DNA of 64,000 bases from a virus. A program made the translations under genes and the position numbers. How positions within the stretch are numbered: position 1 is the stretch's first letter; the number at the start of each line of letters is the position of its first letter. A model generated the notes under the pieces. The model was not told the DNA's origin, did not search any database, and saw only the letters and a program-made list of their open reading frames with translations. Location: the IMG/VR virus record IMGVR_UViG_3300042563_002756, one strand, 5' to 3'. This document shows positions 4,896-63,629 of this stretch, piece after piece.

Positions 4896-5276
4896 TTAGA
4901 TTCCCGGGATATTAAAGTTTACATTCGAACCTGCTCCGATAGTTTTTCGAATATCTACATCGTCTGGTCTTTCTTCTGCACTCATCAAAATAGCAGTATT
5001 ATCTACTCGGCGTAGCTCAATAATGTTTCCATCTTCTTGTTCTACTTCAAAAGTTCGCGTCCATCTACCATGTTCGACACATATCCAGTCCCCTACAGAT
5101 ACTTCGTTCTGCTCTGGACCAATGGCCCATACCCGGCCCCATCTCGGCTTAACGCCTCGAGACTTTCCATTGTCTGATTGAATTACAATACCCGATGCAG
5201 TTTTTTGTACACCGAAATCCATATCAGAAACAATTACGTGATCTCTGATTGGGCGAATTTTGCCTTTAGTTACCAT
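4896..5276 (-). CDS. GroES (Cpn10)-like co-chaperonin
   Basis: IRPIRDHVIV ... SGIVI ... KSRGVK ... VSVGDWI pattern aligns with bacterial GroES (IRPLHDRVIV / GGIVL / KSTRGEV / VKVGDIV). Confidence 0.55.
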   Translation of the reverse strand: MVTKGKIRPIRDHVIVSDMDFGVQKTASGIVIQSDNGKSRGVKPRWGRVWAIGPEQNEVSVGDWICVEHGRWTRTFEVEQEDGNIIELRRVDNTAILMSAEERPDDVDIRKTIGAGSNVNFNIPGI

Positions 5277-5556: not shown

Positions 5557-6111
5557 TTATTTTAGGAATTCTTTTATATCTAGATCGTATTTAATGCTAT
5601 CAATTCGGTGAACTCCGATAAGATATAACACATAGCTTGCTACACTACTTCCACGACCGACTCCCCACACGATTTTATTCTCTCGCATAGTGTCTACTAA
5701 GTATTTAAGGTAGAACAACAAATCAAACATGCCATGTTGGATAAAAAGTAGTAGTTCTTGATCTACTCTTGCACGTTGTTGTTCTGTAGTGCATCGATCA
5801 TACAACCAATCGACTATAGGAAACTCACTGCATTCTTTGGGCATAAACCAAGTGCATTGATTTGCTTCATCAAAAAATGCCACATCTTCTTGGGGTTGCT
5901 GCCACTCTTGTAGTGGAACAAGGTTGTCTTTGTTAGTGTCGACAGCAGTATTGAACTGAACTACTGTGTTGCTATCGAGGTAGACGTTTTGTAAACTTTT
6001 GAGTTTGCCCGAATACAAGTGTTCAAATAGTTCACTAGGATCTAGAAAGACGGCACCGTATTCATTGATATTCATATTAACATTATACGCACCTACTGCA
6101 TACAATGTCAA
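5557..6111 (-). CDS. hypothetical protein (184 aa)
   Basis: ORF. Confidence 0.45.
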   Translation of the reverse strand: MTLYAVGAYNVNMNINEYGAVFLDPSELFEHLYSGKLKSLQNVYLDSNTVVQFNTAVDTNKDNLVPLQEWQQPQEDVAFFDEANQCTWFMPKECSEFPIVDWLYDRCTTEQQRARVDQELLLFIQHGMFDLLFYLKYLVDTMRENKIVWGVGRGSSVASYVLYLIGVHRIDSIKYDLDIKEFLK

Positions 6112-6389
6112 TTATCTACGTTAATAAAATCGTCTAAATTCTTATTTTGATTTGCCAACTTTTGATTGGCTTTGATGTGACGGGTAGACTGCTCGGCTTT
6201 GTATGCTTCGAGTATTACTGAAATTTGGGTGCATACTGCGCCCTGTCCGAATCTAGCAGCCAAGAAGTACTTTTTCATTAACTCGGTAATCTTATTGTCG
6301 ATATCTTCGTTTTTCAACGTAGACAAATCTGGTAATAACGGATTAAACATTATGATAACGTAACTGAGGTACCAGTAAATGCATACCAT
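6108..6389 (-). CDS. hypothetical protein (93 aa)
   Basis: ORF. Confidence 0.4.
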   Translation of the reverse strand: MVCIYWYLSYVIIMFNPLLPDLSTLKNEDIDNKITELMKKYFLAARFGQGAVCTQISVILEAYKAEQSTRHIKANQKLANQNKNLDDFINVDN

Positions 6390-6745
6390 GTGCCGCTATG
6401 ATAATATGCAGGTCTATTGTATGCTGCGTCTGCAACAAATACCAATGTTCCGTTTTCTACATTTCCGGTATCAGTTAACGCAGATAGCTCGCTTAGACTA
6501 TAATTTTTTAATACAATTGAACAATCTACTAAGGTTGCTTTTTTAATTTCATTTCCACCAAAATTATTTGAGCTAGATAGACTTACTAAGTTTACCTGAA
6601 GGTTGGAAATTTCTTCTCCTGTTGTAGACAGTGCTGATTGAATATTAGAAAAGTTAGTTCTAAAACCCTGAGAATCGTTATCAGATCCAGGAACTGGATA
6701 GTTGATGTTTATTAAATTGCTATAATCTGTAATAGTACTTGCCAC
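6350..6745 (-). CDS. small structural-module protein, paralog A (131 aa)
   Basis: N-terminus MASTITDYSNLININYPVPGSDNDSQGFRTNFSNIQ paralogous to 6758..7015; sits next to tail fibre genes. Confidence 0.5.
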   Translation of the reverse strand: MASTITDYSNLININYPVPGSDNDSQGFRTNFSNIQSALSTTGEEISNLQVNLVSLSSSNNFGGNEIKKATLVDCSIVLKNYSLSELSALTDTGNVENGTLVFVADAAYNRPAYYHSGTWYAFTGTSVTLS

Positions 6746-6757
6746 AATTAACTCCTG

Positions 6758-7015
6758 TTAAGATGAAGTGTAACTTTTTAATACAATGCTACAATTCACA
6801 ATAGTTGCATTAGTGACGGTGTTATCGTTAAAGTTATTATTATCAGTTAAGAACACTCCGTTTGTTTTTAATGCATTAATTTCTCTATTAGCAATTTCTA
6901 TGGAAGTTTTGATATTAGAAAAATTATCACGGAATTTTTGAAGGTCGTTGTCTGCACCCTGTACAGGGAAATTAATGTCAATTAAATTACTATAATTTGT
7001 GATAGTGCTAGTCAA
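6758..7015 (-). CDS. small structural-module protein, paralog B (85 aa)
   Basis: MTSTITNYSNLIDINFPVQGADNDLQKFRDNFSNIK paralog of 6350..6745; preceded by TATAAATA. Confidence 0.5.
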   Translation of the reverse strand: MTSTITNYSNLIDINFPVQGADNDLQKFRDNFSNIKTSIEIANREINALKTNGVFLTDNNNFNDNTVTNATIVNCSIVLKSYTSS

Positions 7016-7052: not shown

Positions 7053-10019
7053 TCACTTGAGTTTATTTTTAAGTTCTTTAACTTCTTTAGATAATTCTTT
7101 AACAGCTTCAATTAAAAGTGGCACTAGTTTTTCATACTTGACAGCTAGATATCCGTTGGTTCTTGTAGCAACAATTTCTGGTAAAATTGCTTCAATTTCT
7201 TGAGCAATAACACCTATGTCGTGTTTTCTTACAAAGAAATCATCTTCTCCACCACGACTTTCAATATATGAATCTGTCCAGTCAAAGCGTACACCCCTAA
7301 TTTGTTCAAGCATTTCGAGAGGGTTGCTTAATGATTGTACATTTTCTTTTAGTCTAGCATCAGATGAGTAGTAAGCAGTGATTTCGTTTTCTGCCCTGAT
7401 TTCACCAACTGCCCCGCTGTACCAACCACTTCCTACTGACAGTGTAGTAACAGTAATTGTACTTTGATATGCTGGTGCCGCCGCACCTCGACTTACTGCA
7501 ATTTGACCTATAGAGCCCGGACCGTAGAAAGCAGTTGTATCAGGAGCTGATTGATAAGGAACTTGACCAGCAGTACCACCTGCTAAGTTTGTAGAATTAC
7601 CTACAGTAACTGTGCTAGGTGCTTGCCATGTAGCAGTGCTCGAACCCGCAGTTAACACATATCCGTTAACACCTATTGGAATAAATGCTGTTCTTCCAGG
7701 ACCGCTTTGGATAGGAATGCTGCCAGCGGTACCACCTGCTAGGTTAGTTGCAGTTGTAGAATTACCTACAGTAACTGTGCTAGGTGCTTGCCATGTAGCA
7801 GTCGTTGCTCCGGCTGTTAATACATGTCCAGCTGTTCCTAGAGTAATAAATGCAGTACGTCCCGGTGCGCTTTGAATAGGCATTGCACCTTGTGAACCAC
7901 CTGCTAGATGAGTAGCAGTGGTTGCATTGCCCGCTGTTAAATCAGTTACCTGACTCCATTGTGGTGCTGTACCTCCTGAATTAACAGTTAGTATATAACC
8001 TGCAGAGCCGATGCCTAAGAAAGTTGTAGTACCTGCACCAGTTTGGTATACAATAGAACCTGCTAATCCACCACCAACATTGTCAGTGATTGCAGATCTT
8101 CCTACATATAAAGATGAAGTTGATATAAAGGACGGACCTGTTGCACTAGCACCGTTGCTTACTAAAACTTGTCCTGCTATACCCGGGCCTACAAAACTAG
8201 TAACACCTGATGTAGTTTGGAATGGTAACTGTCCAGTAGTACCGTTTTTCAAGTTTGTAGCAGTAGTTGCTTCGCCCGCTGCAACTCCTGCTAGTGTTTC
8301 CCAGCGAGGACCACTAGCACCAGCGACCAGTACATAACCTAATGCGCCCAGTGATAAAAATACTGTACTGTTGGCAGCATTTTGATAAGGAAGTGATCCA
8401 GCACTACCACCTACTAGGTCGTCTGCTAAAGTTGATCGTCCAACATATATACTACTTGTGTTAGTAAACACCGGACCAGTTGATGTGGTTCCTGCACTCA
8501 CTAGCAGTTGTCCTGCTGTTCCTGGGCCAAAGAAACTAGTCAATCCAGGGCTAGTTTGGAATGGAACTTGTCCTGTAGTACCGTTCTTCAAGTTAGTTGC
8601 AGTGGTTGCTTCACCTGTAGCAATACCACTTAGTGATGCCCATTGAGGTGCAGTTGCACCTGCGGTTAACACATAACCGTTAGTGCCTAGAGGTAAAAAT
8701 ACTGTGCTGTTAGCACCATCTTGATAGACTAAACCACCTGCACCACCACCGACGATGTCATCTGCTAGTACCGCTCTACCTACGTAGATGTTTGATGTGG
8801 AAACAAATTTAGGACCAGTTGCACTTGCACCGTCACTGGTTAATATTTCACCCGCTGTACCTGGACCAAAGAAACTAGTGTTATGAGGTGCTGTCTGGAA
8901 TGGAACTTGTCCCGTAGTACCGTTCCTTAAATTAGTAGACGAATTAGCACTTGATATAGATCCAGAAACAGTTGCGTATAATGTTCCGCCTACATACAAA
9001 TCTCCACCAATACCTGCACCACCTCCGACAATCAATGCACCGGTATTAGTTGATGTTGCATTTGTAGCATTGTTAGTTTGTATAATATCATCTGTGACTA
9101 TTAACGTTGTTGTAACAGTTGTTAATTGAATTGTTAATTTTTGAGCAACAATTTCACCACCAACATACAAATCGCCACCGATACCGACACCACCTACAAC
9201 TCTTAGAGCACCGGTTTGCGTAGAAGTTGCAATAGTTGTGTTGGTTATAGTTGACGCAGGTGTAGTTAGTATACCGTTGTTTGTATTAAACACGAGGTTA
9301 CCACTTGCACCTAATGTTGCATAAGCACTAGCACCGGCAACCATTGTCAAGTATCTTAACGGAGTTGCTTCGCTGGTGCCCAAGCTGGTAACGTATGTTT
9401 TTTCACTTTCAGCAGATTTACCTACAGATATTGTAGTTGTTGAAACAAAACTTGCAGTATTTGTCTGAGCTTGTAGTAAACTTCCTGCTGCACCGGCTGA
9501 TATAAATGTAGTAACACTGGTTGCAGATTGAATAGGGATCTCGCCTGCTGCACCGTTGTTTATGTTATTTGTGTCTGTAGGGCCAGATGGACCAGATGGC
9601 CCAGTTGGCCCAGTAACACCTTGCGGTCCTTGCGGACCGGGAGGTCCTGAAGGTCCTTGAACGCCTTGCGGTCCTTGTGGACCTGTAGCACCCCTAGGTC
9701 CTTGAACGCCTTGCGGTCCTTGTGGACCTTGCGGACCAGTAACGCCCTGTGGTCCTTGAACTCCTTGTGGTCCCTGCGGGCCTTGAACGCCTTGTGGTCC
9801 TTGGGGTCCCTGAACTCCCTGTGGTCCTTGTGGACCTGTAACACCTTGTGGTCCCTGTGGACCAGTGGCACCTATTTGATTTCCTAACCAAGTTCTAACT
9901 CTTGCTGGTTCGAGTTGTTGCTCAACACCGTCGTGCGCTACAATGAATACCGTTTGGTAATCAGTAGGATTCGTTAAGTTAGTCGATAAGACTTCAGAAA
10001 GAGATGCTCTAATAGACAT
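7053..10019 (-). CDS. tail fibre protein: collagen-like N-terminal region, internal tandem repeats, C-terminal S74-type intramolecular chaperone autoprocessing domain
   Basis: ~35 Gly-X-Y triplets (GPQGPQGVQ...); three ~113-aa repeats ([14 protein letters not shown]...IYVGR...); C-term SDARLKENV...RFDWTD matches the SDxRLKE peptidase S74 IMC signature. Confidence 0.8.
7590..8990 (-). repeat. in-frame tandem coding repeats inside tail fibre gene (three ~340-nt units plus three shorter ~150-nt units; boundaries approximate)
   Basis: near-identical DNA blocks around 8170-8290, 8506-8632, 8830-8950; repeated peptide blocks in translation. Confidence 0.6.
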
Positions 10020-10102: not shown

Positions 10103-11650
10103 TTAAACCCAGGATTGAATGTTGGAACCTGTAGTTCCTACTCTAATCCATGTATCAGTTGCTACACAAACGTAAAGAAAATTTGTGTCATAAGATACAA
10201 GCCCAGAAAAACCTGACGAGTTAGGAAGTTTTGATCCTGTTCCAACTGCTACAGTGCCTGGTGGTCCCGACGGACCTGATGCTCCAGTGGGTCCAGTAGC
10301 TCCACTAGGACCTTGTGGTCCTGTAGCGCCAGATGGTCCACTAGGTCCTGTAGCGCCTACTCCTGATGGTCCACTAGGACCTGATGGTCCTGTTGGTCCA
10401 GTTGGTCCAACAAAGCCAATTCCGTTGGCGCCCGATGGGCCTGACGGTCCTGTCGGTCCTGTACTACCTGCGGGACCCTGCGGTCCTGTGGCACCTGCGC
10501 CCGATGGCCCAGTCGGACCTGATGGTCCTGCAACAGCACTTGCTGGACCCGGAGGGCCTGACGGTCCTGTTGCACCTTCTGGTCCTGTTGGACCCGACGG
10601 TCCTTGTGGCCCTGTAGCACCTGCACCTGTGGGTCCTACGTCACCTGGAATTCCTTGAGCACCTGACGGTCCTTGTGGGCCTTGTGGTCCCGTAGTACCA
10701 CCGCCGGTGCCGCCTGATATTGTAACCCATTCGGTGTCATACTCAGTGTTTGATGCTTTGGCTAGAACTTGTCCAGTAAATCCACCTACTGCTATGCCTG
10801 TGCCTGTGCTTCCAGGTGCGCCTGATGGTCCTGATGGTCCTGATGGGCCTGGCAAACCGGGGCTTCCCGGACTACCTGCAGGGCCTTGTGGTCCAGTAGG
10901 CCCTGCACCAGCAGTTGTACTAGTGTTGACCCATTTAGTACCGTCGTACTTTAAAAACTCTCCGCTAATAGGACTTGTTAGTGTTACATCAGTTAACGAG
11001 CTTAATGCAGTTACTCCCGGTGTTGCAGAACCTAAATTTACAACTCCGAATGTACCATACATGTCACTACTGTTTTCTGCGGCATAATATAGTGTAGATG
11101 GAGCGCCTAACGGTACAGCAAATGTAATTGTTCCCGTGGCTGTGCCATTATTAGTTACACCACTATTATATGTATTTTCAGTTCCTGTAGTAGCCGCAGT
11201 TTTAATCCATAACGGATACCCAGCAGCATTAACACTGAAGTTATATGTAAATCCTCTTACAAGGTTTAATGTAGGATCATTGAATCCTTCGATAATATAG
11301 TCTAAACTACCGTTGTTAGTAATAGTATATGTAATTCCAAACCCGCCACCTTCTGGTCCAGTTGGACCAGCGTCACCTTGCGGCCCTTGAGGACCAGAAG
11401 GCCCAGTTGGACCAGGTACTGTACTAGCATCGCCCTGCGGACCTTGTGGTCCTGTTGCACCTTCTGGTCCTTGTGGTCCAGCGCCACCAGCTACTCCGCC
11501 ATAGGCAAGAGTAGCCCAGGTCGAAGTGCCGCTGCCTATTTTAAATTGCCCTGTATCTGTTTCTAGGGCCATTTCTCCTTCGGCCAGGACAGGGTTTGCA
11601 GAACTCCATTCTGCAGCGGTACCTCTTCTAAGTTGAATTTGAACAGCCAT
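10103..11650 (-). CDS. collagen-like tail fibre/structural protein (515 aa) with conserved phage fibre N-terminal domain
   Basis: N-term [32 protein letters not shown]; multiple Gly-X-Y runs. Confidence 0.7.
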
Positions 11651-11675
11651 GTTTGTATTCTTTCCGTATTATCAA

Positions 11676-11684
11676 TATTTATTA
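11676..11684 (-). promoter_or_regulatory. late-promoter-like TAATAAATA
   Basis: TAATAAATA 26 nt upstream of ATG 11650 (overlaps stop of upstream gene). Confidence 0.3.
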
Positions 11685-12104
11685 CACACCACCTGCATTG
11701 ATGGGTGTGATTCCACCATATATAGATGACGGTGTACCACCATCTAAATTTAAAATTCCTTCGCCACTTGCACCACTAGGACCCGATACTCCACTGGGAC
11801 CTGTAGGTCCAGGTACTCCTATTGGTCCTTGAGGACCCGTGGGACCTACAATACTATCGCCCTGTGGTCCTTGCGGACCTGTGGGACCAAAAACTCCCTG
11901 TGGTCCTTCTGGCCCTTGTGGTCCTTGCGGCCCTACAGGACCAGTAGGTCCTACAATCTGTATAGCAGCTTCGTTAACTAGAGTAATTAACTGCTCTAAT
12001 TCCATTTTCCTGGTTCTAGCAGGCTCGTAAGAGACATCAACAACTGGAACAATAAGTTGATCTGTTAATGTGCTTAAAAATGGTAAATTGGTGATTCTTG
12101 CCAT
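11682..12104 (-). CDS. small collagen-like structural protein (140 aa)
   Basis: [19 protein letters not shown]... Gly-X-Y run. Confidence 0.6.
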
Positions 12105-12107
12105 AAA

Positions 12108-13190
12108 TTATTCTCGTTGTAAAGGTTGGTTATTTTCATCATCAAGGCGTACCCAACCTTCTGGACCAAATAGGTAACCATCTATATCCATCAGATCCCC
12201 AACAGCATTTCTGTTGAATATTAGATATTTAGCTCCACTATTGTCTAAACTATTTTCCACAATTATTCGGTCAACTTCAAAATCAACAGTGTTAAACTTA
12301 AAATTATTAGATTTAATTCTATTTAGAATAATTCTGCTTTTATTAGGCAATGTGTAACATAAAGGAACAACCCTCATGTACGTCTTTGTTCTGTAATCAT
12401 TCGACTGCTGAGTTAACATAAATCTAGGCTGTAGTTGTTCATCTACGCTGATAGTCGACCAGTCTTGTAGTGTAATAGATTGTAGCTGTTTACGCATATT
12501 ATCTATACTTGCAGGGTAATATAATTCATCGTTGTGGTCAGTGTGTACTACAGAAGAGACGCTAATATCGGAATTATTAACTAATTCGTCAACTACTTCC
12601 ACATATATTAAATCGTATACGTGTGTTCCTGCAGAATTTTTAGCAATAGCGGATTTTACACCGCCTAATCTTATCTTCTTTTTATAAAAATTCTCTTGTA
12701 ATGCATATTGATATTCGTAGAGATTTAGTTGTTCTATACCAAAATCCAACGTTAGTTTAATACTTCTCTGGACTCCAAAGTTTGAATCGTAATATCTATA
12801 CATTAATAGCGGGTCAAATATAGTAGAGTCGTTGATAAAATTGTTAAATTGATTACGTTTAGTAACACTCAAAAAAGGTCTAATATAGATATCGGTATAC
12901 TTGATATTGTTGGGTTGCGTTACATTTAGAGTGAATGTCTGTGTTGATTCTTCGGTATTTGCAAGGTCAACAGCATTGATTATAAAAGTAAAGGTTCCCG
13001 AGGAATTATAATTTGCTCTACCAACTATGGTACCATCATGTTTTAAAGTTAGCCCGCTGGGAAGTTGCCCAGCTTTAAGCTCGTATTTTAACTCTGAACC
13101 TGACGATGTCTGTGTAGACTGCACAGAAATTTCACTAACATATCCAGTTTGAAGTGTACCTAGACTGCTAGTTGTCAACCATTTTAACAT
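12108..13190 (-). CDS. hypothetical structural-module protein (360 aa)
   Basis: ORF heading the collagen-like gene run; TATAAATC 22 nt upstream. Confidence 0.5.
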   Translation of the reverse strand: MLKWLTTSSLGTLQTGYVSEISVQSTQTSSGSELKYELKAGQLPSGLTLKHDGTIVGRANYNSSGTFTFIINAVDLANTEESTQTFTLNVTQPNNIKYTDIYIRPFLSVTKRNQFNNFINDSTIFDPLLMYRYYDSNFGVQRSIKLTLDFGIEQLNLYEYQYALQENFYKKKIRLGGVKSAIAKNSAGTHVYDLIYVEVVDELVNNSDISVSSVVHTDHNDELYYPASIDNMRKQLQSITLQDWSTISVDEQLQPRFMLTQQSNDYRTKTYMRVVPLCYTLPNKSRIILNRIKSNNFKFNTVDFEVDRIIVENSLDNSGAKYLIFNRNAVGDLMDIDGYLFGPEGWVRLDDENNQPLQRE

Positions 13191-13307: not shown

Positions 13308-13676
13308 ATGGAAATTATTGTCGCAGTCGCAGTATTTGGCTTTGGATTATGGTGGGTCTTTTTAAGAACTCCTGCTGATACAAAACCATCTGCACCTTAT
13401 AAAATTGAAACTCCACCTGCACCGGAACCTGCTCCGGTTGTGGTAGAAACTGCACCTGCAGTTGTTACTGATACAGTAGTGGTAGTAGAAAATGCAGTCG
13501 TACCAGAAGCTGTAGTAGCAGAAGCTCCTGCTAAGAAGCCACGTACACCACGTGCTCCTAAAGTAGAAGCTCCTGTAGCAAAACCAGCCGCAAAAAAAGC
13601 AGCCCCTGTTAAGAAGGCTGCTGCTATTAAAGCTGCTCCTAAGAAACCAGCAACTCCGAGATCAAAGAAGGCTTAA
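13308..13676 (+). CDS. membrane-anchored low-complexity protein with histone H1/AlgP-like Lys-Ala-Pro repeat tail
   Basis: N-terminal hydrophobic helix (IIVAVAVFGFGLWWVFL), then APAPEPAPVVV and KKAAPVKKAAAIKAAPKKPATPRSKK repeats; AAAGGA RBS. Confidence 0.55.
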   Translation: MEIIVAVAVFGFGLWWVFLRTPADTKPSAPYKIETPPAPEPAPVVVETAPAVVTDTVVVVENAVVPEAVVAEAPAKKPRTPRAPKVEAPVAKPAAKKAAPVKKAAAIKAAPKKPATPRSKKA

Positions 13677-14690
13677 TTTTTTAGCTCGGTCGGCAAGGGC
13701 AACGCTCGCAAGGTTTTTGCCCTTTGCTTCTACCATAATATCATGGGTATCGAGGAAACTTAATGCCCATTCATTTACTGCGGTGTTCCACATAAAATTA
13801 CTGTGGGCTCGCAGTTTCTGCTTTTTGTGTCCGGCTTCTAATAGCTGTGCATAATCGGGCAGTGTTTTCTCACAATGTCCAGGTAGCCATTCTTCACGGC
13901 TAACAGAATAGTGCATAACGGGTCGAACACCCCGCCAGCTGTCAATCACACGTAGAACTCTATCGTCGGTGGGTTGAATGTAGTCTCCTGTACGGACCCA
14001 GTGATGGTGTACGTCAAGCACGAGGGCGCAATGTTTTTGCAGCTCAAGGCTGCTTTCGATTCCCCAGGCGTTCTCGTCGTTTTCAATTGTGATGCAGTTT
14101 CTTGCTTCGGGGGTAAGTCTTCCGAGTACATCCTTAATGCCTTGTGGACCTCTTCGACCCGAGATGTGGACGTTGATTTTAAAGTCTTGAAACGATTTAC
14201 CATATCCCATCCAGCGGGCCATATCCACATGATATTCAAACTCCTCTATCGACCTATTTACAATATCATCCGACTCACTTGCCAAGACAGTAAACTGACC
14301 AGGATGAAAGCTGAGCCTAACGCCGCCCTTGCGAGCCAGATCTCCCACGGCTCGAAATGCTCTTTCGCAATAGGCTCTAACATCGGATAGCCTGTAAAAG
14401 AACTGCCAATCGCGCTGAGTATACACAGGTAGTATATCGCTGCCGAGTCGTACCATTCTAAGATTTTCATCAAGTGCTCCTACACGTTCTACCAGTTTGC
14501 GAACAGCTTCAATGTTACCTTTAGTAAGGTCCCAAAGTTTTTCTTCTGCTACATTCTGGCTCTGTCTATTTAACCACGCAACGGTGGTAGAGCCAGTATT
14601 GTACTTTTTAGCATCGTCATTGGGCTTGATGCCATTAACTTGTGCAGGAGTGTCGATCCATTTGCAGGCAAATCCAATTTGTTTTTTCAT
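13662..14690 (-). CDS. uvdE: UV-damage endonuclease (UvdE/UvsE family TIM-barrel)
   Basis: SFHPGQFT, INVHISGRRG, ITIENDE, LVLDVHHHW, IMVEAKGKN blocks align with B. subtilis UvsE (SFHPNQFT, INIHIGGAYG, LTLENDD, FVFDFHHF, FMIEAKQKD). Confidence 0.8.
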   Translation of the reverse strand: MKKQIGFACKWIDTPAQVNGIKPNDDAKKYNTGSTTVAWLNRQSQNVAEEKLWDLTKGNIEAVRKLVERVGALDENLRMVRLGSDILPVYTQRDWQFFYRLSDVRAYCERAFRAVGDLARKGGVRLSFHPGQFTVLASESDDIVNRSIEEFEYHVDMARWMGYGKSFQDFKINVHISGRRGPQGIKDVLGRLTPEARNCITIENDENAWGIESSLELQKHCALVLDVHHHWVRTGDYIQPTDDRVLRVIDSWRGVRPVMHYSVSREEWLPGHCEKTLPDYAQLLEAGHKKQKLRAHSNFMWNTAVNEWALSFLDTHDIMVEAKGKNLASVALADRAKKLSLL

Positions 14691-15337
14691 GATATCAATC
14701 TTAAATGAGAGGGCGTTGTTATCCCAATTTCTGGAAAAAAGTTTTTTGTGTAAATGTCAAATGCAATTCCAACCCTTAAATTTCCCTGATAGGGCAATGT
14801 TTCGTGTGGCATAATGCAAGAAAAGAAATGTATGTCTCCTGTTTTATTTGGAATTTTTAAAATGTCTTTACCGTAATACACAGTATCACTAGGTGCATCA
14901 CCTTGTAAGAATAAGTTTCCACAGATTGTTTTAAACACATTCTTTTTAAACATGTCATTCTCAATAATCGGAGATGCATGGTGCATGTGTTTTTCTATTC
15001 TTTCTCCTTTTCGGAAAATATTAGCCCACATTTTAACATAGAATTCCTCCCCACCAATGATCTGTTTTGCAGATTCTAAAATCTTTTTAAGCAACGGATT
15101 TATTTGATTAGGAAGAAAATCAATTAAATTGTAATATTCGTGTCTAGTGGTAATAGAATTAACGGGTGCTTCTTTGTAATGTGACGGACCTAATCCAATA
15201 ATTTTACTTTCTAGTTTAACAATACTATCAGTAAGTGCATTACAATAAGTTTGATCTAGTACATTGACCCCGAGGATATTGTTTTTGAAATTCTCAATGC
15301 GGTCTTCGTAGACTATTTGGGTTTGTGCAACGACCAT
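14687..15337 (-). CDS. hypothetical protein, possible cupin/2OG-oxygenase-like fold (216 aa)
   Basis: HMHH ... E and PHE His-rich motifs; weak. Confidence 0.35.
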   Translation of the reverse strand: MVVAQTQIVYEDRIENFKNNILGVNVLDQTYCNALTDSIVKLESKIIGLGPSHYKEAPVNSITTRHEYYNLIDFLPNQINPLLKKILESAKQIIGGEEFYVKMWANIFRKGERIEKHMHHASPIIENDMFKKNVFKTICGNLFLQGDAPSDTVYYGKDILKIPNKTGDIHFFSCIMPHETLPYQGNLRVGIAFDIYTKNFFPEIGITTPSHLRLIS

Positions 15338-15480
15338 GAACCATCCTTGTTGTCAATCCATTCGAGGGTGTCGCCTTCTACCCAACCTTGCATATTGAGT
15401 AGTTCTTGAGGCAACGGCAAAATAAGATCCTTAGTATCGGGATCTTCTTCAAGTATTACTGTCCAAGAATGTTTAGTCAT
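15313..15480 (-). CDS. small ORF (55 aa) overlapping start of downstream gene
   Basis: MTKHSWTVILEEDPDTKDLILPLPQELLNMQGWVEGDTLEWIDNKDGSWSLHKPK; not in ORF track (<60 aa). Confidence 0.25.
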   Translation of the reverse strand: MTKHSWTVILEEDPDTKDLILPLPQELLNMQGWVEGDTLEWIDNKDGSWSLHKPK

Positions 15481-15488
15481 AGTATATT

Positions 15489-16424
15489 TTACACGATTGT
15501 ACGGAAATAGTCAATGGTTCTAACAAGTCCTTGTTCCAAATTGATTTTAGGTTCCCAATCGAGCATAGACTTTGCTACTGAAATATCCGGACGACGTTGC
15601 TTTGGATCGTCTTGAGGCAAAGGCATTTGAAGGATTTGGCTCTTGCTTCCGGTAAGTTCAATAACTTTATGTGCTAATTCCCACATGGTAAACTCTCCTG
15701 GATTGCCAGTATTGACAGGCCCGATAAAATTATCGTCGGTGTGGTTCATCATTGCCTGCATAGCATCCAAAAGATCATCAACATAGCAGAAACTACGAGT
15801 TTGCATACCATCACCGTAGATAGTAATGTCTTTGCCTTGTAGTGCTTGAACGATGAAATTACTAACTACTCTGCCATCATTTTGAGCCATTCTTGGGCCA
15901 TAAGTGTTGAAAATACGAACAATTTTGGCCTTAACATCGTGAGTACGGTAGTAGTCCATAAACAGTGTTTCTGCGGCACGTTTACCCTCATCGTAGCAAC
16001 TACGGATACCAATTGGATTTACATTGCCCCAATATGATTCCGGTTGTGGATGTACAGTTGGGTCACCGTAGCATTCACTGGTACTTGCCTGTAGAATCTT
16101 AGCACCAGTACGTTTGGCCAAACCTAGCATATTGTAGGCACCTAGCACACTGGTTTTCATTGTTTGGATAGGATCCCATTGATAATAATATGGACTTGCA
16201 GGGCAAGCCAAATTATAAATCTCATCAACTTCTACATATAATGGAAAGCAAACATCTTGTCGGATGACTTCAAAATTCTTGTTATCTAATAAATGAGCAA
16301 TATTGTTTTTGCTACCTGTAAAATAATTGTCCACACAAAGAACATGGTGTCCTTCGTTGACAAGCCGATCACATAAATGTGAACCTAAAAATCCTGCGCC
16401 GCCTGTTACTAATACTTTTTTCAT
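15489..16424 (-). CDS. UDP-glucuronate decarboxylase (UDP-xylose synthase, extended SDR)
   Basis: [26 protein letters not shown] catalytic motifs typical of UXS. Confidence 0.85.
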
Positions 16425-16903
16425 TTGTTTCCTTTAATTAAATTAGGTGAGTACTGTGGCAATACATTACTAACTTCTGTTTCTTTTTTATTTTCTAGTT
16501 TAACGGTTCTATCTCTAAGTTCGCTAGAACTATAAACATGTTCTCTTTTATGATAGTGTAATTCTATACCGTTGTCAATACACCATTGCTTGCCTGTAAA
16601 ATCTCTATTTAGATATTCGTCACTGAGAAACCGAATATGAATAGTCTGTGTCTTAAGTAATTGTAACAGATCGAATTCGGTTTCGTATATTAAAATTTCA
16701 TCCACATATTTGCAGGCCTGTAATTGCACATATCTTTCATAGGCACTTTGAACAGGTTTATTTTTAACTCCAGGTCTATCTATTGAAGGATCAATTTGAA
16801 GTGCAACAACAAGATAATCGCATAACTGTTTCTCCATTTTAAGCATGGTTACATGACCTGCATGTAACAGATCAAAACTACTACAGTTAAATCCTATCTT
16901 CAT
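16421..16903 (-). CDS. cytidylyltransferase paralog 2 (HxGH nucleotidyltransferase)
   Basis: LLHAGH motif; paralog of 4138..4602 over whole length. Confidence 0.7.
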
Positions 16904-17034
16904 TCTGCGTCCTTTGGCGCTACAATTCCATATTGTTCATACATCCATTTAATAAATCTTTCAATTTCTTTACTTGGGTATGGATACGCTTTGTATGCTA
17001 TGGTTACTCTTTCTAACCAATCTTTATCTGTCAT
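16900..17034 (-). CDS. small ORF (44 aa), ATGA-coupled to cytidylyltransferase
   Basis: [44 protein letters not shown]. Confidence 0.3.
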   Translation of the reverse strand: MTDKDWLERVTIAYKAYPYPSKEIERFIKWMYEQYGIVAPKDAE

Positions 17035-17189
17035 GTTAGTTCCAGTGCCTTAATACACCTGCTACTATAAAGCAGTTTGTTATTATGTATGATAGCACAA
17101 TAAATGTGCGAAAGCAAGCAATTAGATCTGATTCCGAATCTGTATTGCCTGCTTTTTCTCCAAGGGCCTTAGCCCATAGTCTCCAAATG

Positions 17190-17696
17190 TTACGCAAATA
17201 GGTCTTCATTCCATTCACGATGTCCTTCACGGAACGCCATATTGGCCTGTGTTTCGCGTACTTCCACACGATAGCACCAAAGTCTTGCCGCTTCGCCCGG
17301 TCCCCACATCTCTGGAATGTAAACGCCGTTGACATATTTGTAGAGCATGTCACTTAATGCTTCACAACCGAGTGCTGGTAGAATGACAATCTTAGCCATG
17401 TTCTTTTCTTGTAGCATTTTGAATACTTCCATTTGAGGATCGTCTTGTGCAACAATTAAAGTATGATCGAATTGATCCTCTAATGTTTTCTTTAGTTCTT
17501 TTAAACCACCATAGTCAGCTGCCCAATTGCGGACATCTAGGTCGTTGGTGCCAAAGTAGAATTTCATGCTAAATGAATAGCCGTGAATTAGATTACAATG
17601 ACTATCACTGCGCCATTGGCGGTATGCACAGGGAAATGCATCGTGATATTCTTTTGTGCTTGTGTACTTGTATAGTACGGGTTGTAGATTTGCCAT
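17190..17696 (-). CDS. 6-pyruvoyl-tetrahydropterin synthase / QueD-like T-fold enzyme
   Basis: C-x3-HG(Y) motif (HCNLIHGYSF), size 168 aa; AAAGGAGA RBS. Confidence 0.55.
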   Translation of the reverse strand: MANLQPVLYKYTSTKEYHDAFPCAYRQWRSDSHCNLIHGYSFSMKFYFGTNDLDVRNWAADYGGLKELKKTLEDQFDHTLIVAQDDPQMEVFKMLQEKNMAKIVILPALGCEALSDMLYKYVNGVYIPEMWGPGEAARLWCYRVEVRETQANMAFREGHREWNEDLFA

Positions 17697-17796
17697 CTCT
17701 AGTCTCCTTTGTAAGGTAGCAAGTTTGACGACATGCAGAGTTTATAAAGCGGGATGAATGTGCGTGAAAGTCCGCTGCCTACTATTTATTATAGGC

Positions 17797-18381
17797 TTAT
17801 CGACGTGAAACAATTTTGTCGCAAAGACCATAAGCCAGTGCTTCATCTGCGCTCATAAATGTATCTCGATCCATATCACGCTCAAAATCGGGATAGCTTT
17901 TACCGGCGGTATTGTGTTCAACATACAATTTGGTTAACATGGTTTTCATTTGTGTGATTTCTTTGTATTGAATTTCAATATCACTCTGCATACCACGAGC
18001 ACCACCACTAGGCTGATGAATCATGTGACGAGCATGTGGCAACATAAAACGTTTACCTGGATGTCCTGCCTGTGCTAGGAAACTACCCATTGAACAAGCC
18101 TGACCCATAACATAGGTACACACATTTGGTTTGACAAACTGCATAACGTCATAGATAGCCATGCCACTTGTAATTACACCGCCTGGACTATTAATGTAAA
18201 AGTGAATATCCTTTTCGCTGTCTGAACTTTCCAAATGTAGGATCTGTGCTACAATTAGATTACTACTGTGATCATCGACTGGTCCATTCAAGAACACAAT
18301 ACGCTCATTAAGCAAGCGGCTAAAAATATCAAAGGCTCTTTCGCCTTGTCCGGTCTTCTCGACCACCATTGGTACTAACAT
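17797..18381 (-). CDS. clpP: ATP-dependent Clp protease proteolytic subunit ClpP
   Basis: INSPGG, catalytic Ser in GQACSMGS, His in MIHQP; full-length similarity to ClpP. Confidence 0.9.
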
Positions 18382-31398: not shown

Positions 31399-32310
31399 AT
31401 GCGATTTATTTTTTTTACAATTTTAATTTTTATCACTTCTATAGCTAATTCTACAGAACTAATTTGGATAAACTCACCTTATAGTGCAGGTCACAGCGGG
31501 CACAATTCTTTAGAAAAAGTACTTACAAAAGCTAACTCATCTCAACAAGACTATATTTTTAAAATTCAAATAAAACCTGGCGGCCAGGGAATAGTTGCAT
31601 TAAAAGAAACGGATATAAATCCGTCGTCTGCTCTAGCAATTGTACATGCTGCATTTGTTGACAATGTTGAGAAAAATTTAATTAAAAGAAATGATTATGT
31701 TGCTATCCACGGTATGGGAGATGCATGTTGGGCTGTTGTATCGTCAAACGGAATACAATCTGTTGGTGTTTCGAGTCTGCAACACACGTCCGAAATCGTA
31801 GTCGGAACAGTGGGAATTGGAAATGCTACTCATCTTACAGCATTAGAAATTGGTAGAAAATATAATATTCCAGTTAGATTAGTTCCATTTAAATCAAACT
31901 TCGATGCATTTGTCAATCTTGCAGGAAATAATGGAGTTAATTTTACTATAGAACGACTATCCACAGTTCAAAATTTTAAACAAAAGAATTCGAATATTAA
32001 AATTTTAGGACTTAGTTGTACGACAAGATCTCTCTACGAACCATCTATAAAAACTTTATCTGAACAGGGTATAAATGTTCCGTCAGTGTTTAATGTGATT
32101 GTTTCGAATAGACAAATGAGCGAAGCAAAACGAAAAACTATAGGAAGAATTTTAGACAAATCTACTAAAATAGTAGGCAATGATGAGATAATGAAACTTA
32201 GTGATATGAGAAGTCCAGTGTTTGACTCAATTAATGCTGAAGATTTTTTTAATGATAGGATTAATTCTATTTCAAATATTAGAAAACGCCATTCTCAGGC
32301 AATACAATAA
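31399..32310 (+). CDS. TctC/Bug-family periplasmic solute-binding protein-like, divergent (signal peptide)
   Basis: signal peptide; blocks NSPYSAGHSGHNSL, IKPGGQGIVA, VGTVGIGNATHLTALEI, RLVPFKSNFDAFVNL align to TctC conserved blocks. Confidence 0.55.
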   Translation: MRFIFFTILIFITSIANSTELIWINSPYSAGHSGHNSLEKVLTKANSSQQDYIFKIQIKPGGQGIVALKETDINPSSALAIVHAAFVDNVEKNLIKRNDYVAIHGMGDACWAVVSSNGIQSVGVSSLQHTSEIVVGTVGIGNATHLTALEIGRKYNIPVRLVPFKSNFDAFVNLAGNNGVNFTIERLSTVQNFKQKNSNIKILGLSCTTRSLYEPSIKTLSEQGINVPSVFNVIVSNRQMSEAKRKTIGRILDKSTKIVGNDEIMKLSDMRSPVFDSINAEDFFNDRINSISNIRKRHSQAIQ

Positions 32311-32317
32311 CCCTCTT

Positions 32318-32692
32318 TTAAAGTATGTCTGATATGTTCCAATTACCTTCGGGCAGAATAATTTCTTGTACAGTTCCGTCTTCGCTTGATATTTCAATAA
32401 TTTTTGCACCTGCGGTAATGCCTACTAAAGCATTATACTCGTCTCGTATGATCCAAAATGGATCCATTTCCGTATCGTGATCGTATTTGTGAAATTCCTC
32501 TAAATTTTCCCATTCGGCATAATAATTTAAAGTCAATTGGTCTTCACTCACATTATGCTCCCATTTAGTGATCTTTTCTTCTCCAATGTAATAATGCCAA
32601 CGAGTTAACCACTCATCGTCTGGCTGCATTACTTCATAATGCCAGAAAATTTCTGGCATTGGCCTATTAAATACTCTTTTAAAAATTATCAT
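32318..32692 (-). CDS. hypothetical protein (124 aa)
   Basis: ORF. Confidence 0.4.
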   Translation of the reverse strand: MIIFKRVFNRPMPEIFWHYEVMQPDDEWLTRWHYYIGEEKITKWEHNVSEDQLTLNYYAEWENLEEFHKYDHDTEMDPFWIIRDEYNALVGITAGAKIIEISSEDGTVQEIILPEGNWNISDIL

Positions 32693-32728
32693 AAATTCTC
32701 CTAGAAACGGTAGTAATCAATTTTATTT

Positions 32729-33709
32729 ATGCTAAATATGAGTGGTATAAAGGAGATTGATATGACCGCCAAACTAGTTAGATGGGTGCTTGCACACGAA
32801 CCTATTGAAATTTTTATTAGAGCTGCTGAAAAATTTGCTGAGATAGTAGAAGAAAGAGCTCCAGGAAGATTAAAAATTGAAGTATTAATGCTTAGTGAAT
32901 ATGCTGAAAAATATCAAAACGGTAAAAAAATAACCAAGCATGACTTACTTGATTTGATGGATAAAGATGAAATTGAAATGAGTCAAATGTATACCTACGT
33001 CTTGAGTAAGTTTAACAAAGACCTAAATGCATTGGACATGCCATTTTTATTCAACGATCACGATCATGCAGCTAGAGTATTTGAAGGACCTATTGGTGAT
33101 CAACTATTAAACGGTTATTCTAAAACTAACAGTAATATCAAAGGTTTGGCATTTACCTATAGTGGAGGATATAAGAATCTCCCGTTTAATAAAAAGATTA
33201 CTTCGTTAAGTGACTTAAAAGGTGCTAAGGTTAGAGTATCTAACAGTCCTGTATGCTTTGATACATTTAAAGCACTAGGGGCAGATCCTATTGTAATGGA
33301 TGTTGAAGAAATTACCCCTGCAATAAAAGATGGTAGAATTGATGCAGGTGAAAGCTCTTGGCCTAGAATTTACGGTTGCGATCAAAACACAGTTGCTAAA
33401 AGTATTTTTAACACAGGTCACAGTCTGTTATTAACTAATATTATTATCAACACTAAATTCTTTAATAGTTTAGATTACGAGATGCAGAATCTATTAAAGG
33501 AAGCAGCAGTAGAAGCTGGCCGATTCGAAAGAAAAATCAGTGTAGATGATGTTAGTCCTACAATTGATAAAGCACGAGCAGACGGAATCGAAGTAGTTGA
33601 TTTATCTCAGAAAGATCTAGAAACGTTTAAAGAGTTATCAAAAGAAATTTATTCAAAGTACGAAAATTTCTTCAGTAAAGGCTTGTTAGACAATATTAAG
33701 AAACACTAA
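32729..33709 (+). CDS. DctP-family TRAP-type solute-binding protein homolog lacking a signal peptide
   Basis: MPFLFNDHDHAARVFEGPIGDQLL, KGLAFTYSGGYKNL, LKGAKVRVSNSPVCFDTFKALGADPIVMDV match DctP blocks; no N-terminal signal sequence. Confidence 0.7.
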   Translation: MLNMSGIKEIDMTAKLVRWVLAHEPIEIFIRAAEKFAEIVEERAPGRLKIEVLMLSEYAEKYQNGKKITKHDLLDLMDKDEIEMSQMYTYVLSKFNKDLNALDMPFLFNDHDHAARVFEGPIGDQLLNGYSKTNSNIKGLAFTYSGGYKNLPFNKKITSLSDLKGAKVRVSNSPVCFDTFKALGADPIVMDVEEITPAIKDGRIDAGESSWPRIYGCDQNTVAKSIFNTGHSLLLTNIIINTKFFNSLDYEMQNLLKEAAVEAGRFERKISVDDVSPTIDKARADGIEVVDLSQKDLETFKELSKEIYSKYENFFSKGLLDNIKKH

Positions 33710-35013
33710 ACCCAATCTATTTTATAGTTCTTCAACCCGGCTTCAAAGTAACATTTGACTTCGGGTTGATCTATTTTTAAAACTCGATAATTTTCGTCCA
33801 GCGCCCATCTAGTATCTAGATCCTTCCAATTTTGTTTGTATACTCGAGCAATAATTACTGGCATAGATGGCATTTTTATTTTATTAAAAAAATAAAAATC
33901 GTTTTTATCAAATTTGTGCAGATAACATTTTGATGCCCACTTGTATGTACTTTGTGTAATGCCTTTAAGTTTTTCCCCGTTATTGTTATTATGCATACTC
34001 CATTGTTGATAATCTAAAGAACCGAACCAGCTTATTATGTCTTCAGTTAATATTGATTTAAAATTATCGTTAAGTCCGTAAACCATTGCAGGACGAACTG
34101 CACCCCAAACAAATCTAGGATTAAACATTGACCACCAGAAGAAATCATGCAAACTGTAAATCGGTACATTGACACTTTTTATATTGTTGTGTATTTTTTC
34201 ATAAAATAAATGTCCAAAATTTGCATCGTGAGAATTTTCAGAACTTATATTTTGTGGAACGTAGGGTATAGTTTTTAAAGAGTTTATGCCTCTCTTTAAT
34301 GCAGTATTAAAATAATATATTAAAATATCTCGATACTCAGAATAGTGCGTGTTTGAATCACTTACCTTGTTGTAAAGATGACTGAGATTTTTTCTACCGG
34401 CAGTCTGCATAGTTTCTTCAAGGTATTTCATTTGAGGATACAGTTTAACCCCCAATTCTGTTCCGTAAATGAAATCACCTAGATCAGCTGATATACAAAA
34501 ATGTTGTTTATTTTTTATAAAATCACTATAAAAATTTTTAGAAGAATCGATAATTTTAAATTTACCTTCGATGTGATTTGTATAGAAATATGGATTTTCT
34601 ATAATAGAATCAGCACTCATTGAAATTATTATTTTTTCTAAATATTCTTGTCCTAGATTTTTTATTAACGAGGCCATTACAACAGTACTGTCTATTCCTC
34701 CAGAATAAAATACAACACAGTTTTTACCTGTTTGATCGATAATATTTTTTATATCCATTGCCCTGCGGTCTGTTACTTCTTCAAATGATAGATTGAACTT
34801 TAAATCAAAAAGTGGAATCTCCCATCCGGACGGTACTACCGTATCCCAAGGATCACTCCATTCTCCGGCTCTTGACAAATATGCAGCGGGTGGATTTGCT
34901 CTTGCAATATTACAATAAAATCTTCCTCCTTCGTCGAGCTCGTCAAAAAATTTAGACAGAGTTGTTGCAACGCTGTAAGAATTAACCGAAGTGCTTTTAT
35001 ATAGTAGTTTCAT
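33706..35013 (-). CDS. PP-loop ATP-pyrophosphatase-family protein, paralog 1 (435 aa)
   Basis: SGGIDS PP-loop (VVFYSGGIDSTVV); paralogous to 35611, 40604, 42724. Confidence 0.65.
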   Translation of the reverse strand: MKLLYKSTSVNSYSVATTLSKFFDELDEGGRFYCNIARANPPAAYLSRAGEWSDPWDTVVPSGWEIPLFDLKFNLSFEEVTDRRAMDIKNIIDQTGKNCVVFYSGGIDSTVVMASLIKNLGQEYLEKIIISMSADSIIENPYFYTNHIEGKFKIIDSSKNFYSDFIKNKQHFCISADLGDFIYGTELGVKLYPQMKYLEETMQTAGRKNLSHLYNKVSDSNTHYSEYRDILIYYFNTALKRGINSLKTIPYVPQNISSENSHDANFGHLFYEKIHNNIKSVNVPIYSLHDFFWWSMFNPRFVWGAVRPAMVYGLNDNFKSILTEDIISWFGSLDYQQWSMHNNNNGEKLKGITQSTYKWASKCYLHKFDKNDFYFFNKIKMPSMPVIIARVYKQNWKDLDTRWALDENYRVLKIDQPEVKCYFEAGLKNYKIDWV

Positions 35014-35599
35014 ATTTTCTTAAATAGTTGTAGAAAGTTTGCCTATATGAATATAATGATGAACTCATATTGGTGTTTTCTTTGAAAATTTTTGATATTT
35101 TTTCTAAAGCCTCTTGCCTAGATGAAGAAAAATATAAAATATGATCTATATGCCAGAGAAAAGGTTTAGCCAGGCCGGTGTCGTCGGATAATGTTGATAG
35201 TGAAATATCATCGCTAACTAAGGATAATATATATTTTTGATCGCTAGAGTTTAAACTTGCATCAGTTAGTCTAGAAGACAACACAACATTATATGCAAAA
35301 TTGCAATAATTCTGATATTCTAAAAAAACATTCTGAGGAATATCCGGTGATCGTTCTCGAGTATCAAAAAGTTGATCTTCGATATGTTTTATTCGAGGAA
35401 TTGGTTTATCAAGCATTGCAATACTAGGATCTTTTATACCCCATGTGCTGCAATTATCATTATTGATACTGTTATTATTAAATTCAAATAAAGACAATAA
35501 AAATTTGGATGAAAGAATTTTACCAGTTTGTAAAGATATCCATCTGTCGTCTTTAACGAGTAGAAATCTTTCTAAGTTGTTTGAGTATATACCGATCAT
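34997..35599 (-). CDS. hypothetical protein (200 aa)
   Basis: ORF in island operon. Confidence 0.4.
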   Translation of the reverse strand: MIGIYSNNLERFLLVKDDRWISLQTGKILSSKFLLSLFEFNNNSINNDNCSTWGIKDPSIAMLDKPIPRIKHIEDQLFDTRERSPDIPQNVFLEYQNYCNFAYNVVLSSRLTDASLNSSDQKYILSLVSDDISLSTLSDDTGLAKPFLWHIDHILYFSSSRQEALEKISKIFKENTNMSSSLYSYRQTFYNYLRKYETTI

Positions 35600-35610
35600 C
35601 GCAATATTTA

Positions 35611-36495
35611 TTATAGTAAGTTTTTAGGTATTCTAAGTGTGGTTCCTATATAAGGGCTCCAATTAGCACTAGCTGTTTTTTGTAGGTGGTCCATGATTTT
35701 TGTTGCAACATCTGGATTTTTACCAAATACAAAGTTATCAGTTTTTTTCTTATAAACAGATTGATGATGATAATCGGGAAATATTATGCTCGACTTTGGT
35801 TCATAAAAAAATTTGAAATTAGTTCTTAATCTTGGATCTTTTAAAATATGATACCAAGTATTAAAATTTCTACTATAAAAATTACCTTCTCCTTGTTTAT
35901 TATAATGAGTTAAACATTGATTGTATAAAATTTCTGAGAGGTGCAAAGGTATGTAGATGTATTGATTATCAAAATCTTTAACCGAATTATTATAAATTGT
36001 AAGATATTTGTTGACATTATTTTTTTCTATATCCCCTTCTCCCATTATGATATAAAACTCTTTTGGTATAAATTTAGTTAGTATTGCACCTACCACATAT
36101 CCCGGAAACATAACAGGACAAATTTGAAATATTTCGTCGATAATATAATCAAAGATGTCATTAACTGTGATTTCGAAAATGTTAAGTTTTGTGTTGTGGT
36201 ACTGAGAAATTAATTTTGCTCCTTCGAGCATATTGTCATTTATATTTCGAATATGGAGGAAAAAATATTCGCAAGGAACTTTTAGTTTATATAAAGAATT
36301 AGCAATTAATTCACTATCTATACCCGAAAGGCACAATCCTATTTGATTGATGTTTTTTAATTTAGCATCATTATATAAGTCTGTAACTGATAAATCAATA
36401 GCCTCGAGGTAGTTGTTTGTAATAATTGGATCAAACTCGTTAACTGTATAAGTAAATTGACACGTTAATTTATTAAAATTAAAATTTCGTTTCAT
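35611..36495 (-). CDS. PP-loop-like paralog 2 with degenerate motif (294 aa)
   Basis: LCLSGIDSELI (SG-DS with one Gly lost); same fold family as neighbours. Confidence 0.5.
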   Translation of the reverse strand: MKRNFNFNKLTCQFTYTVNEFDPIITNNYLEAIDLSVTDLYNDAKLKNINQIGLCLSGIDSELIANSLYKLKVPCEYFFLHIRNINDNMLEGAKLISQYHNTKLNIFEITVNDIFDYIIDEIFQICPVMFPGYVVGAILTKFIPKEFYIIMGEGDIEKNNVNKYLTIYNNSVKDFDNQYIYIPLHLSEILYNQCLTHYNKQGEGNFYSRNFNTWYHILKDPRLRTNFKFFYEPKSSIIFPDYHHQSVYKKKTDNFVFGKNPDVATKIMDHLQKTASANWSPYIGTTLRIPKNLL

Positions 36496-36745
36496 AATAA
36501 TTAATAACTCTTTGTTTTTTTTCTTTTAATTCTGCACTAATTTCATTTTCTAATAAAATTTCCAATCCCCTTGAGCTCAACGTAAGATGGTATTCGATAA
36601 TATTTTTATTGTTAACAACTTTAAAAAACTCACTGGTTTCTTTTATTTCAATTATAATGTTGTCGTCTGAGACAGTTATATATTCATTTATTATATAACA
36701 GATAAGACCAGTCGCCTTATCTATAATTGCAAATTTTTTAATCAT
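36479..36745 (-). CDS. hypothetical small protein (88 aa)
   Basis: ORF. Confidence 0.35.
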   Translation of the reverse strand: MIKKFAIIDKATGLICYIINEYITVSDDNIIIEIKETSEFFKVVNNKNIIEYHLTLSSRGLEILLENEISAELKEKKQRVINYYETKF

Positions 36746-36756
36746 ATAAATACCTT

Positions 36757-40595: not shown

Positions 40596-40603
40596 AATCT
40601 TGT

Positions 40604-42700: not shown

Positions 42701-42723
42701 GTATTTTCTTTTTCTACAAATAT

Positions 42724-43641: not shown

Positions 43642-43649
43642 TGAATATT

Positions 43650-45898: not shown

Positions 45899-45928
45899 AA
45901 AGTTATGTAACTTATTATTTTAAGTTAT

Positions 45929-46522: not shown

Positions 46523-46639
46523 TAATTATTAAACTTACTTTTTATCGATTTATAAGATTCTGTAGTTGACCCGAATGATAGCAAATATCTGACTTTGCGC
46601 CGACCTTTATTTGATACCCTATGAAATTGTTTAGTGCTA

Positions 46640-47446: not shown

Positions 47447-47488
47447 TTGTAGGAAGCATAAGTATAGTTATCTACTGAATTTATTCCT

Positions 47489-56007: not shown

Positions 56008-56008
56008 T

Positions 56009-63554: not shown

Positions 63555-63629
<75 letters not shown>

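Follow-up and report, generated by a model that had tools for sequence, protein, structure and literature searches.

The 64,000-nucleotide window analysed here, from the IMG/VR virus record IMGVR_UViG_3300042563_002756, carries at 7053–10019 on the minus strand a gene for a 988-residue protein that joins a collagen-like stalk, a set of in-frame repeats and a C-terminal Peptidase_S74 intramolecular chaperone. We consider it very probable that the gene product is a virion fibre built of three identical chains, most likely a fibre of the tail, and that the phage is an uncultured jumbo myovirus with only a distant relationship to Pseudomonas phage PA5oct. The three-part reading had been proposed in an earlier note made from the DNA letters, and it is supported by the results below. 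Such an architecture is of a type already known, fibres with collagen and S74 having been published; the sole uncurated element is a repeat unit of about 55 residues.

The open reading frame, which the earlier note had placed correctly, consists of 988 codons and a stop codon at 7053–7055. An identical 988-residue protein is recorded on three contigs, the longest of which is NCBI GCA_043533235.1 JBFDNU010003781.1 (207,946 bp), and the start codon is backed by orthologue N-termini of the form MTVRAPLSEVL.... The gene divides into the following parts, listed from the N-terminus with the basis of each assignment:

7053–10019, minus strand: complete fibre gene (open reading frame list; identical protein on three contigs)
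9873–10019, minus strand: N-terminal domain, residues 1–49, with a putative role in virion attachment (pattern common to syntenic orthologues)
9576–9872, minus strand: collagen-like triple-helix segment, residues 50–148 (Pfam Collagen; triplet count)
9396–9566, minus strand: repeat unit 1, residues 152–208, a single copy right behind the collagen segment (unit profile)
8934–9395, minus strand: middle region, residues 209–362, with two GAL motifs (direct repeat D6, spacing 171 nucleotides)
7911–8933, minus strand: units 2–7, three A+B pairs, residues 363–703 (segment BLASTP, unit profile, 339-nucleotide spacing)
7434–7910, minus strand: units 8–10, residues 704–862 (Tandem Repeats Finder, unit profile)
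7365–7433, minus strand: tip, residues 863–885, the predicted C-terminal end of the cleaved fibre (conservation in colinear homologues)
7056–7364, minus strand: Peptidase_S74 intramolecular chaperone domain, residues 886–988, 103 amino acids (Pfam), with self-cleavage predicted just before Ser886
7362–7364, minus strand: codon of Ser886, predicted nucleophile and scissile-site serine (translation check; invariant in the alignment)
7347–7349, minus strand: codon of Lys891, predicted general base at Ser+5 (translation check; spacing as in T5 pb1)

The collagen-like segment is composed of 33 unbroken Gly-X-Y triplets, mainly GPQ and GVQ, with proline at X in 23/33 and glutamine at Y in 21/33. The collagen run described in the earlier note therefore stands, with its count of about 35 triplets corrected to 33. 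Pfam Collagen (PF01391) matches with an E value of 1.3e-13 (51 bits against a cut-off of 27.2), and the syntenic orthologues have 30–34 triplets at the equivalent position. Ahead of the triplets, the pattern M..RA.LSEVL....P....FIV....L...LG is common to the fibre and to its syntenic orthologues P0003, P0013, and P0005; no family model in Pfam or NCBIfam matched residues 1–49. In codon usage, GGT and GGC together account for 108 of the 154 glycine codons in the gene, and a tRNA-Gly (anticodon GCC) is found at 63556–63629 (minus strand) in a genome whose fibre genes encode 15–23% glycine. At 9560–9891 and 10254–11566 (both strands), several open reading frames of 60–134 amino acids coincide with collagen-coding DNA, read in a different frame or from the other strand; they are probably by-products of the GGN-CCN periodicity, not genes. 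A promoter and terminator scan around the fibre gene gave nothing above background.

The repeats are built from one unit of 52–58 amino acids present in ten copies, one behind the collagen segment and nine in a contiguous array, starting at residues 152, 363, 420, 476, 533, 589, 646, 704, 759, and 811, with the consensus NLxGGtxGxxPxQxxpgxTxFxgxGxaGxvLt...P.W. A unit profile finds all ten copies at E values of 1e-23 to 1e-29 each (unit 1 at 9.5e-24), values that express mutual consistency only, the profile having been built from the same ten units. Independent support comes from BLASTP of a repeat segment against the rest of the protein, with E values of about 1e-8 to 1e-46; among the BLAST comparisons it took this segment-against-whole one to reveal the repeats, self-BLAST of the whole protein returning the identity match only.

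The earlier note had described three repeats of about 113 residues and three shorter ones of about 47 as two kinds of repeat. The long repeats, at residues 363–475, 476–588, and 589–703, do have a length of about 113 amino acids and are in frame, because their DNA spacing is exactly 339 nucleotides, which settles the in-frame check that the note had suggested; they are mutually 58–69% identical in protein and 62–67% in DNA. They are not, however, a separate repeat type: each joins two diverged units, called A and B, and both the unit profile and the segment BLASTP find the same unit in the long and the short repeats. The short repeats, at 704–758, 759–810, and 811–862, measure 55, 52, and about 52 amino acids, not 47, and of the three said to be visible in the DNA, only units 8 and 9 are clearly so. 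For units 8 and 9, Tandem Repeats Finder reports a period of 165 with 2.0 copies and 77% matches, the longest exact run is 48 nucleotides, and identity is 75% in protein and 76% in DNA; all other unit pairs share exact DNA runs of at most 17 nucleotides. Units 8 and 9 are the youngest duplicates. Two elements had been overlooked, namely the tenth copy, at 152–206, and a separate duplication, within the middle region, of the GAL motif, whose GAL residues are found at 270 and 327, 57 amino acids apart (171 nucleotides in DNA). The GAL motif sits right before the chaperone domain in many homologues.

An AlphaFold2 model, computed as a monomer with a mean predicted local distance difference test score (pLDDT) of 66, has four short β-strands in each of units 8–10 at a pLDDT of about 64–84. 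Over residues 149–885, no Pfam family matched at E values up to 1 and no NCBIfam family matched, homologues with 15–26 units likewise had no Pfam match on their repeats, and the unit profile found nothing among PDB sequences at E values up to 10. The DM9 family (PF11901) was considered for the unit and rejected, since it matched only partially in three homologues (positions 4–24 of 115), with no stretch significant alone.

In the C-terminal domain, the motif SDARLKENV, which the earlier note had read as the signature of Peptidase_S74, begins at residue 886, and Pfam PF13884 matches residues 886–950 of 988 with an E value of 1.7e-14 and 54.3 bits against a cut-off of 22; profile searches for this family and for collagen, both of which the note had proposed, thus gave matches above cut-off. 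The residues S886-D-A-R-L-K891 place a serine and a lysine at i/i+5, so the catalytic dyad that the note had asked for is present with the spacing of T5 pb1 (PMC4690869). In an alignment of 18 colinear homologue fragments, which extend over three units, tip, and chaperone, the residues S886, D887, R889, L890, and K891 are invariant in 18/18, and orthologue P0005, which has SDASMK instead of SDxRxK, keeps both Ser and Lys. In a phmmer search against PDB sequences, the distal subunit gp37 of the long tail fibre of Salmonella phage S16 (6f45) was the best match to the chaperone (E 2.7e-9), with VSSDRRIKKDI aligned over the SSDARLK region. The search also found the ICA domain of MyRF (7dc3), which differs in that MyRF is a eukaryotic membrane-bound transcription factor whose cleavage has another biological role. 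The predicted fold, a mixed α/β part followed by a long C-terminal helix of the kind that builds a trimeric coiled coil, matches solved chaperone domains, 3gud being among the structural matches. The chaperone starts only 23 residues past the last unit, while many homologues carry 100–540 extra residues between array and chaperone. Within this short tip, I874, E879, and A882 do not vary among the colinear homologues and the EITAYY stretch hardly varies; confidence of the model is low in the tip (pLDDT below 50).

Among C-terminal intramolecular chaperones, those of K1F, phi29/GA-1, T5, and S16 have been well characterised (PMC7289586). T5 pb1 uses Lys1269 to activate the scissile Ser1264, and its chain is cleaved between Thr1263 and Ser1264 after trimer folding, a mechanism shared with the K1F endosialidase (PMC4690869). 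The present fibre resembles both in having a C-terminal Peptidase_S74 domain in the range of about 100–130 residues, with a serine and a lysine five residues on, and cleavage right before the serine after trimer folding is predicted here too. It differs from them in lacking a bullet-shaped receptor-binding domain or a sialidase β-propeller, having a collagen helix and the 55-residue array instead, and its chaperone is 103 amino acids long compared with 133 in T5. S16 gp37 shares the chaperone (SSDRRIK compared with SSDARLK) and has neither a collagen segment nor the 55-residue units. Collagen and S74 occur in one fibre protein in Stx2 phages of enteroaggregative haemorrhagic E. coli (PMC4122784) and in polinton-like viruses (PMC12220804), but there with other modules in between (laminin G, phage tail repeat-like, and adenovirus fibre domains), and the 55-residue array is not described in them.

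The following assembly pathway is proposed. The 103-residue S74 domain would bring three chains into register at their C-termini and so start trimerisation, and folding would proceed from the C- to the N-terminus through the nine-unit array, the middle region, unit 1, and finally the 33-triplet collagen helix, whose length, with 0.29 nm per residue, would come to about 28 nm. After correct folding of the trimer, Ser886, activated by Lys891, would cut the Ser885–Ser886 bond and release the chaperone, leaving a mature chain of 885 residues that ends in ...EITAYYS. The N-terminal 49 residues would hold the fibre on the virion, and the array would form the shaft and the distal part, its length shifting by in-frame duplication and loss of units.

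More than 5,262 proteins match the whole fibre at E values up to 1e-10, the best being only 58% identical, and the top 120 homologues have 1–16 units each, with collagen, Mtd_N, and S74 modules present or absent in varying combinations. Searched alone against 1.84 billion proteins, the unit profile matches (E up to 0.001) 4,135 representatives of 50%-identity clusters, and single proteins contain as many as 26–29 copies. In the phage collection, no record covers 80% of the fibre protein (the best single match covers 33%) and there is no match at DNA level. Tail fibre-like proteins of Synechococcus phages S-B43, RB11-B, and S-B05 carry the units at 32–40% identity (residues 362–553), and a Pelagibacter phage HTVC008M protein annotated as baseplate wedge initiator carries the last unit and the chaperone at 49% identity (residues 831–973); these matches span at most 19% of the fibre protein.

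Three further loci, L002/L003, L004 (270-kb contig), and L005 (264-kb contig), are syntenic with the window, the related contigs with such loci measuring 208–270 kb. Their gene order is UvdE, fibre gene, small protein, a DNA polymerase III alpha fragment of 171–174 amino acids, cpn10, clamp loader, and PhoH. All four fibres follow a common blueprint of an N-terminal domain of about 45 residues, 30–34 triplets, one unit, a middle region with the GAL motif, and the array, and they total 10, 14, 9, and 12 units. One orthologue has an additional domain of 300 residues ahead of the chaperone, and a different one contains, besides the first, a collagen run of 61 triplets. The nearest relatives of unit 1 are the first units of the orthologues (55–69% identity), and it is accordingly ancestral and fixed in position. 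In this fibre, units 2–6, 8, and 9 find their nearest relatives within the same protein, as do most array units of the fibre and P0003 taken together, and 23 of 45 units overall. This nearness within proteins points to arrays that expanded independently in each lineage by in-frame duplication, or that were homogenised by gene conversion. The comparison of copy number across relatives, which the earlier note had recommended, thus yielded 9–14 units in the syntenic orthologues and the 1–16 in the top homologues given above. The note had also named the array a likely hotspot for host-range variation by recombination: the variable copy number and the nearness of units within proteins bear out a hotspot at the evolutionary level; recombination as the route of change and an effect on host range are inferred.

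The window most likely derives from an uncultured jumbo myovirus distantly related to PA5oct. Its clamp loader is 61% identical to that of PA5oct (Arenbergviridae) and 49% to that of Agrobacterium phage Atu_ph07, and PA5oct has the chaperonin, clamp loader, and PhoH genes in the same order. When the first 25 kb of the window were compared by megablast with 50,697 phage records, no match resulted, so no cultured close relative was found there. An origin from a eukaryotic virus was considered and rejected, the clamp loader, PhoH, and rIIA/rIIB being of phage type. The rIIA (725 amino acids) and rIIB (359 amino acids) homologues lie at 54952–58186 (minus strand) and fit the lifestyle of a large T4-like or jumbo myovirus.

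Directly upstream of the fibre gene, at 10103–13190 (minus strand), are three further fibre-type genes, encoding 515 amino acids with Mtd_N and five collagen stretches, a collagen-like protein of 140, and one of 360 with an Ig-like He_PIG domain. These genes are missing at this position in the three syntenic loci, and the fibre island is therefore enlarged in this phage. A diversity-generating retroelement target was considered and rejected, since the neighbour's Mtd_N is an N-terminal fibre domain only and a partial scan of the open reading frames found no reverse transcriptase among those covered.

Several observations weigh against the protein being a tail fibre that matures as proposed. 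The gene lies among genes of replication and repair (UvdE, the DNA polymerase III alpha fragment, cpn10, and clamp loader) outside any recognisable tail module, and at the equivalent position PA5oct lacks a fibre gene. For the unit fold, taken from a monomer model of moderate confidence, there was no structural match. Between array and chaperone there is no separate receptor-binding domain. Finally, in T5, Arg1250, contributed by a neighbouring chain from upstream of the scissile bond, acts as a folding sensor and as a partner in the oxyanion hole, whereas no invariant counterpart of it exists among the colinear homologues; R875, 11 residues upstream of Ser886, is N or Y in many of them.

Since the surroundings of the gene are a variable island bounded by UvdE and the DNA polymerase III alpha fragment, and not a tail module, the word "tail" is taken from family names only. 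The same architecture and maturation could belong to a fibre of the head, neck, or whisker type, or to a decoration serving reversible first contact or environmental adhesion and not the step of committed receptor binding, which would agree with this position, with the empty place in PA5oct, with the three adjoining fibre-type genes, which suggest an accessory fibre set, and with the S74 domains on the neck appendages of GA-1 and phi29 (the 3gud matches). We nevertheless think this unlikely. The majority of the 25 PHROG families listed for the fibre are tail-fibre or other tail families, mostly annotated as tail fibre, long tail fibre distal subunit, or baseplate, the tail fibre family phrog_5073 spans residues 49–273, and S16 gp37, the best match among PDB sequences, is the distal subunit of a long tail fibre; it should be added that the tail annotations of these PHROG and PDB matches are mostly transferred, not tested.

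It is also conceivable, if quite improbable, that the S74 domain only trimerises and folds the chain and then stays attached, so that the mature protein would be the full 988 residues. The lack of conservation of the upstream arginine is in keeping with this, as is SDASMK in P0005, which indicates that the motif tolerates change; on the other hand, P0005 retains the dyad, Ser886 and Lys891 do not vary in the alignment, and in every characterised case with an intact dyad the domain is released (PMC4690869; PMC7289586). A non-virion product is scarcely credible; the phage would then encode an adhesin or surface protein of collagen-like type, expressed in or on the host and comparable to the collagen-like proteins that pathogens carry on prophages. 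The gene does stand among non-structural genes and NCBIfam reports similarity to SclA/B and Lcl, but this similarity is below threshold (58–73 bits against cut-offs of 325–500) and confined to the GXY segment, past which Pfam and NCBIfam contain no cell-wall-anchored or other adhesin family match (a signal peptide was not specifically searched for), and the remainder matches phage fibre families and ends in a fibre-specific chaperone domain.

Behind the fibre gene lie two further genes:

6350–7015, minus strand: two small paralogous genes directly downstream (6758–7015, 85 amino acids; 6350–6745, 131 amino acids), candidate fibre-associated proteins by synteny

The 85-residue gene is a truncated paralogue of the 131-residue gene (54% identical). 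A homologue of the small protein follows the fibre gene at all four syntenic loci, the others being 110, 108, and 496 amino acids long (496 at L005), and its N- and C-terminal parts are conserved around a variable middle. Only 30 homologues of the 131-residue protein were found; it has no match in Pfam, PHROG, or NCBIfam, and its homologues are without a Pfam domain. Its model is confident (pLDDT 82), with a long helix (residues 25–52) and a small α/β domain, for which Foldseek found no match in the PDB (best E about 1). In S16, too, a small gene follows the gp37 fibre gene, as the small genes follow the fibre gene here, the difference being that the 85- and 131-residue proteins gave no family or fold match. 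That the small downstream protein is a tip adaptor or an assembly factor is speculation. As a possibility, though an improbable one, the 55-residue unit may be a widespread, uncurated, and structurally unsolved shaft module, and in this phage clade loss of the chaperone may lay bare the conserved EITAYYS tip, which could dock the small downstream protein; the specificity for the host would then lie in this adaptor (compare gp38 on gp37 in S16) or on the sides of the array, not in the fibre tip.

Other genes of the window may be described briefly. The DNA polymerase III alpha fragment, at 5557–6111 (minus strand), is a stand-alone open reading frame of 184 amino acids (172 in the contig's own gene calls) that matches only positions 16–94 of the model PF07733; it is kept, at 171–174 amino acids, in all four syntenic loci and may be a split or fragmentary polymerase gene. 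At 4896–5276 (minus strand) lies a GroES/cpn10-like co-chaperonin gene (Pfam Cpn10, E 5e-7), kept in the syntenic loci and in PA5oct. On the other side of the fibre island, 13662–18381 (minus strand) holds an auxiliary gene set that includes the UV-damage endonuclease UvdE, a GDP-mannose dehydratase/epimerase, a cytidylyltransferase-like protein, PTPS (QueD-like), and a ClpP protease, together with a 2OG-Fe(II) oxygenase-like protein below the Pfam cut-off. From about 32000 to 50000, the G+C content is low (0.28–0.36 compared with about 0.39–0.46 elsewhere); this stretch, which may have been acquired as a modification or glycan island, holds two radical SAM enzymes, one of them with a B12-binding domain, and an AMP-binding enzyme. 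Just past it, at 52116–53138, is a group-1 glycosyltransferase.

Current understanding of fibre assembly is unchanged by these results. What they provide is an annotation, correct and in detail, for one fibre gene of a PA5oct-like jumbo phage that is uncultured, and the recognition that thousands of fibre proteins from metagenomes are built on a single uncurated unit of about 55 residues. The in-frame expansions in the syntenic orthologues, in so far as they were independent, are a clean example of how the length and surface of a fibre evolve, and with a family model or a solved structure of the unit, receptor-binding proteins of environmental phages could be annotated better.

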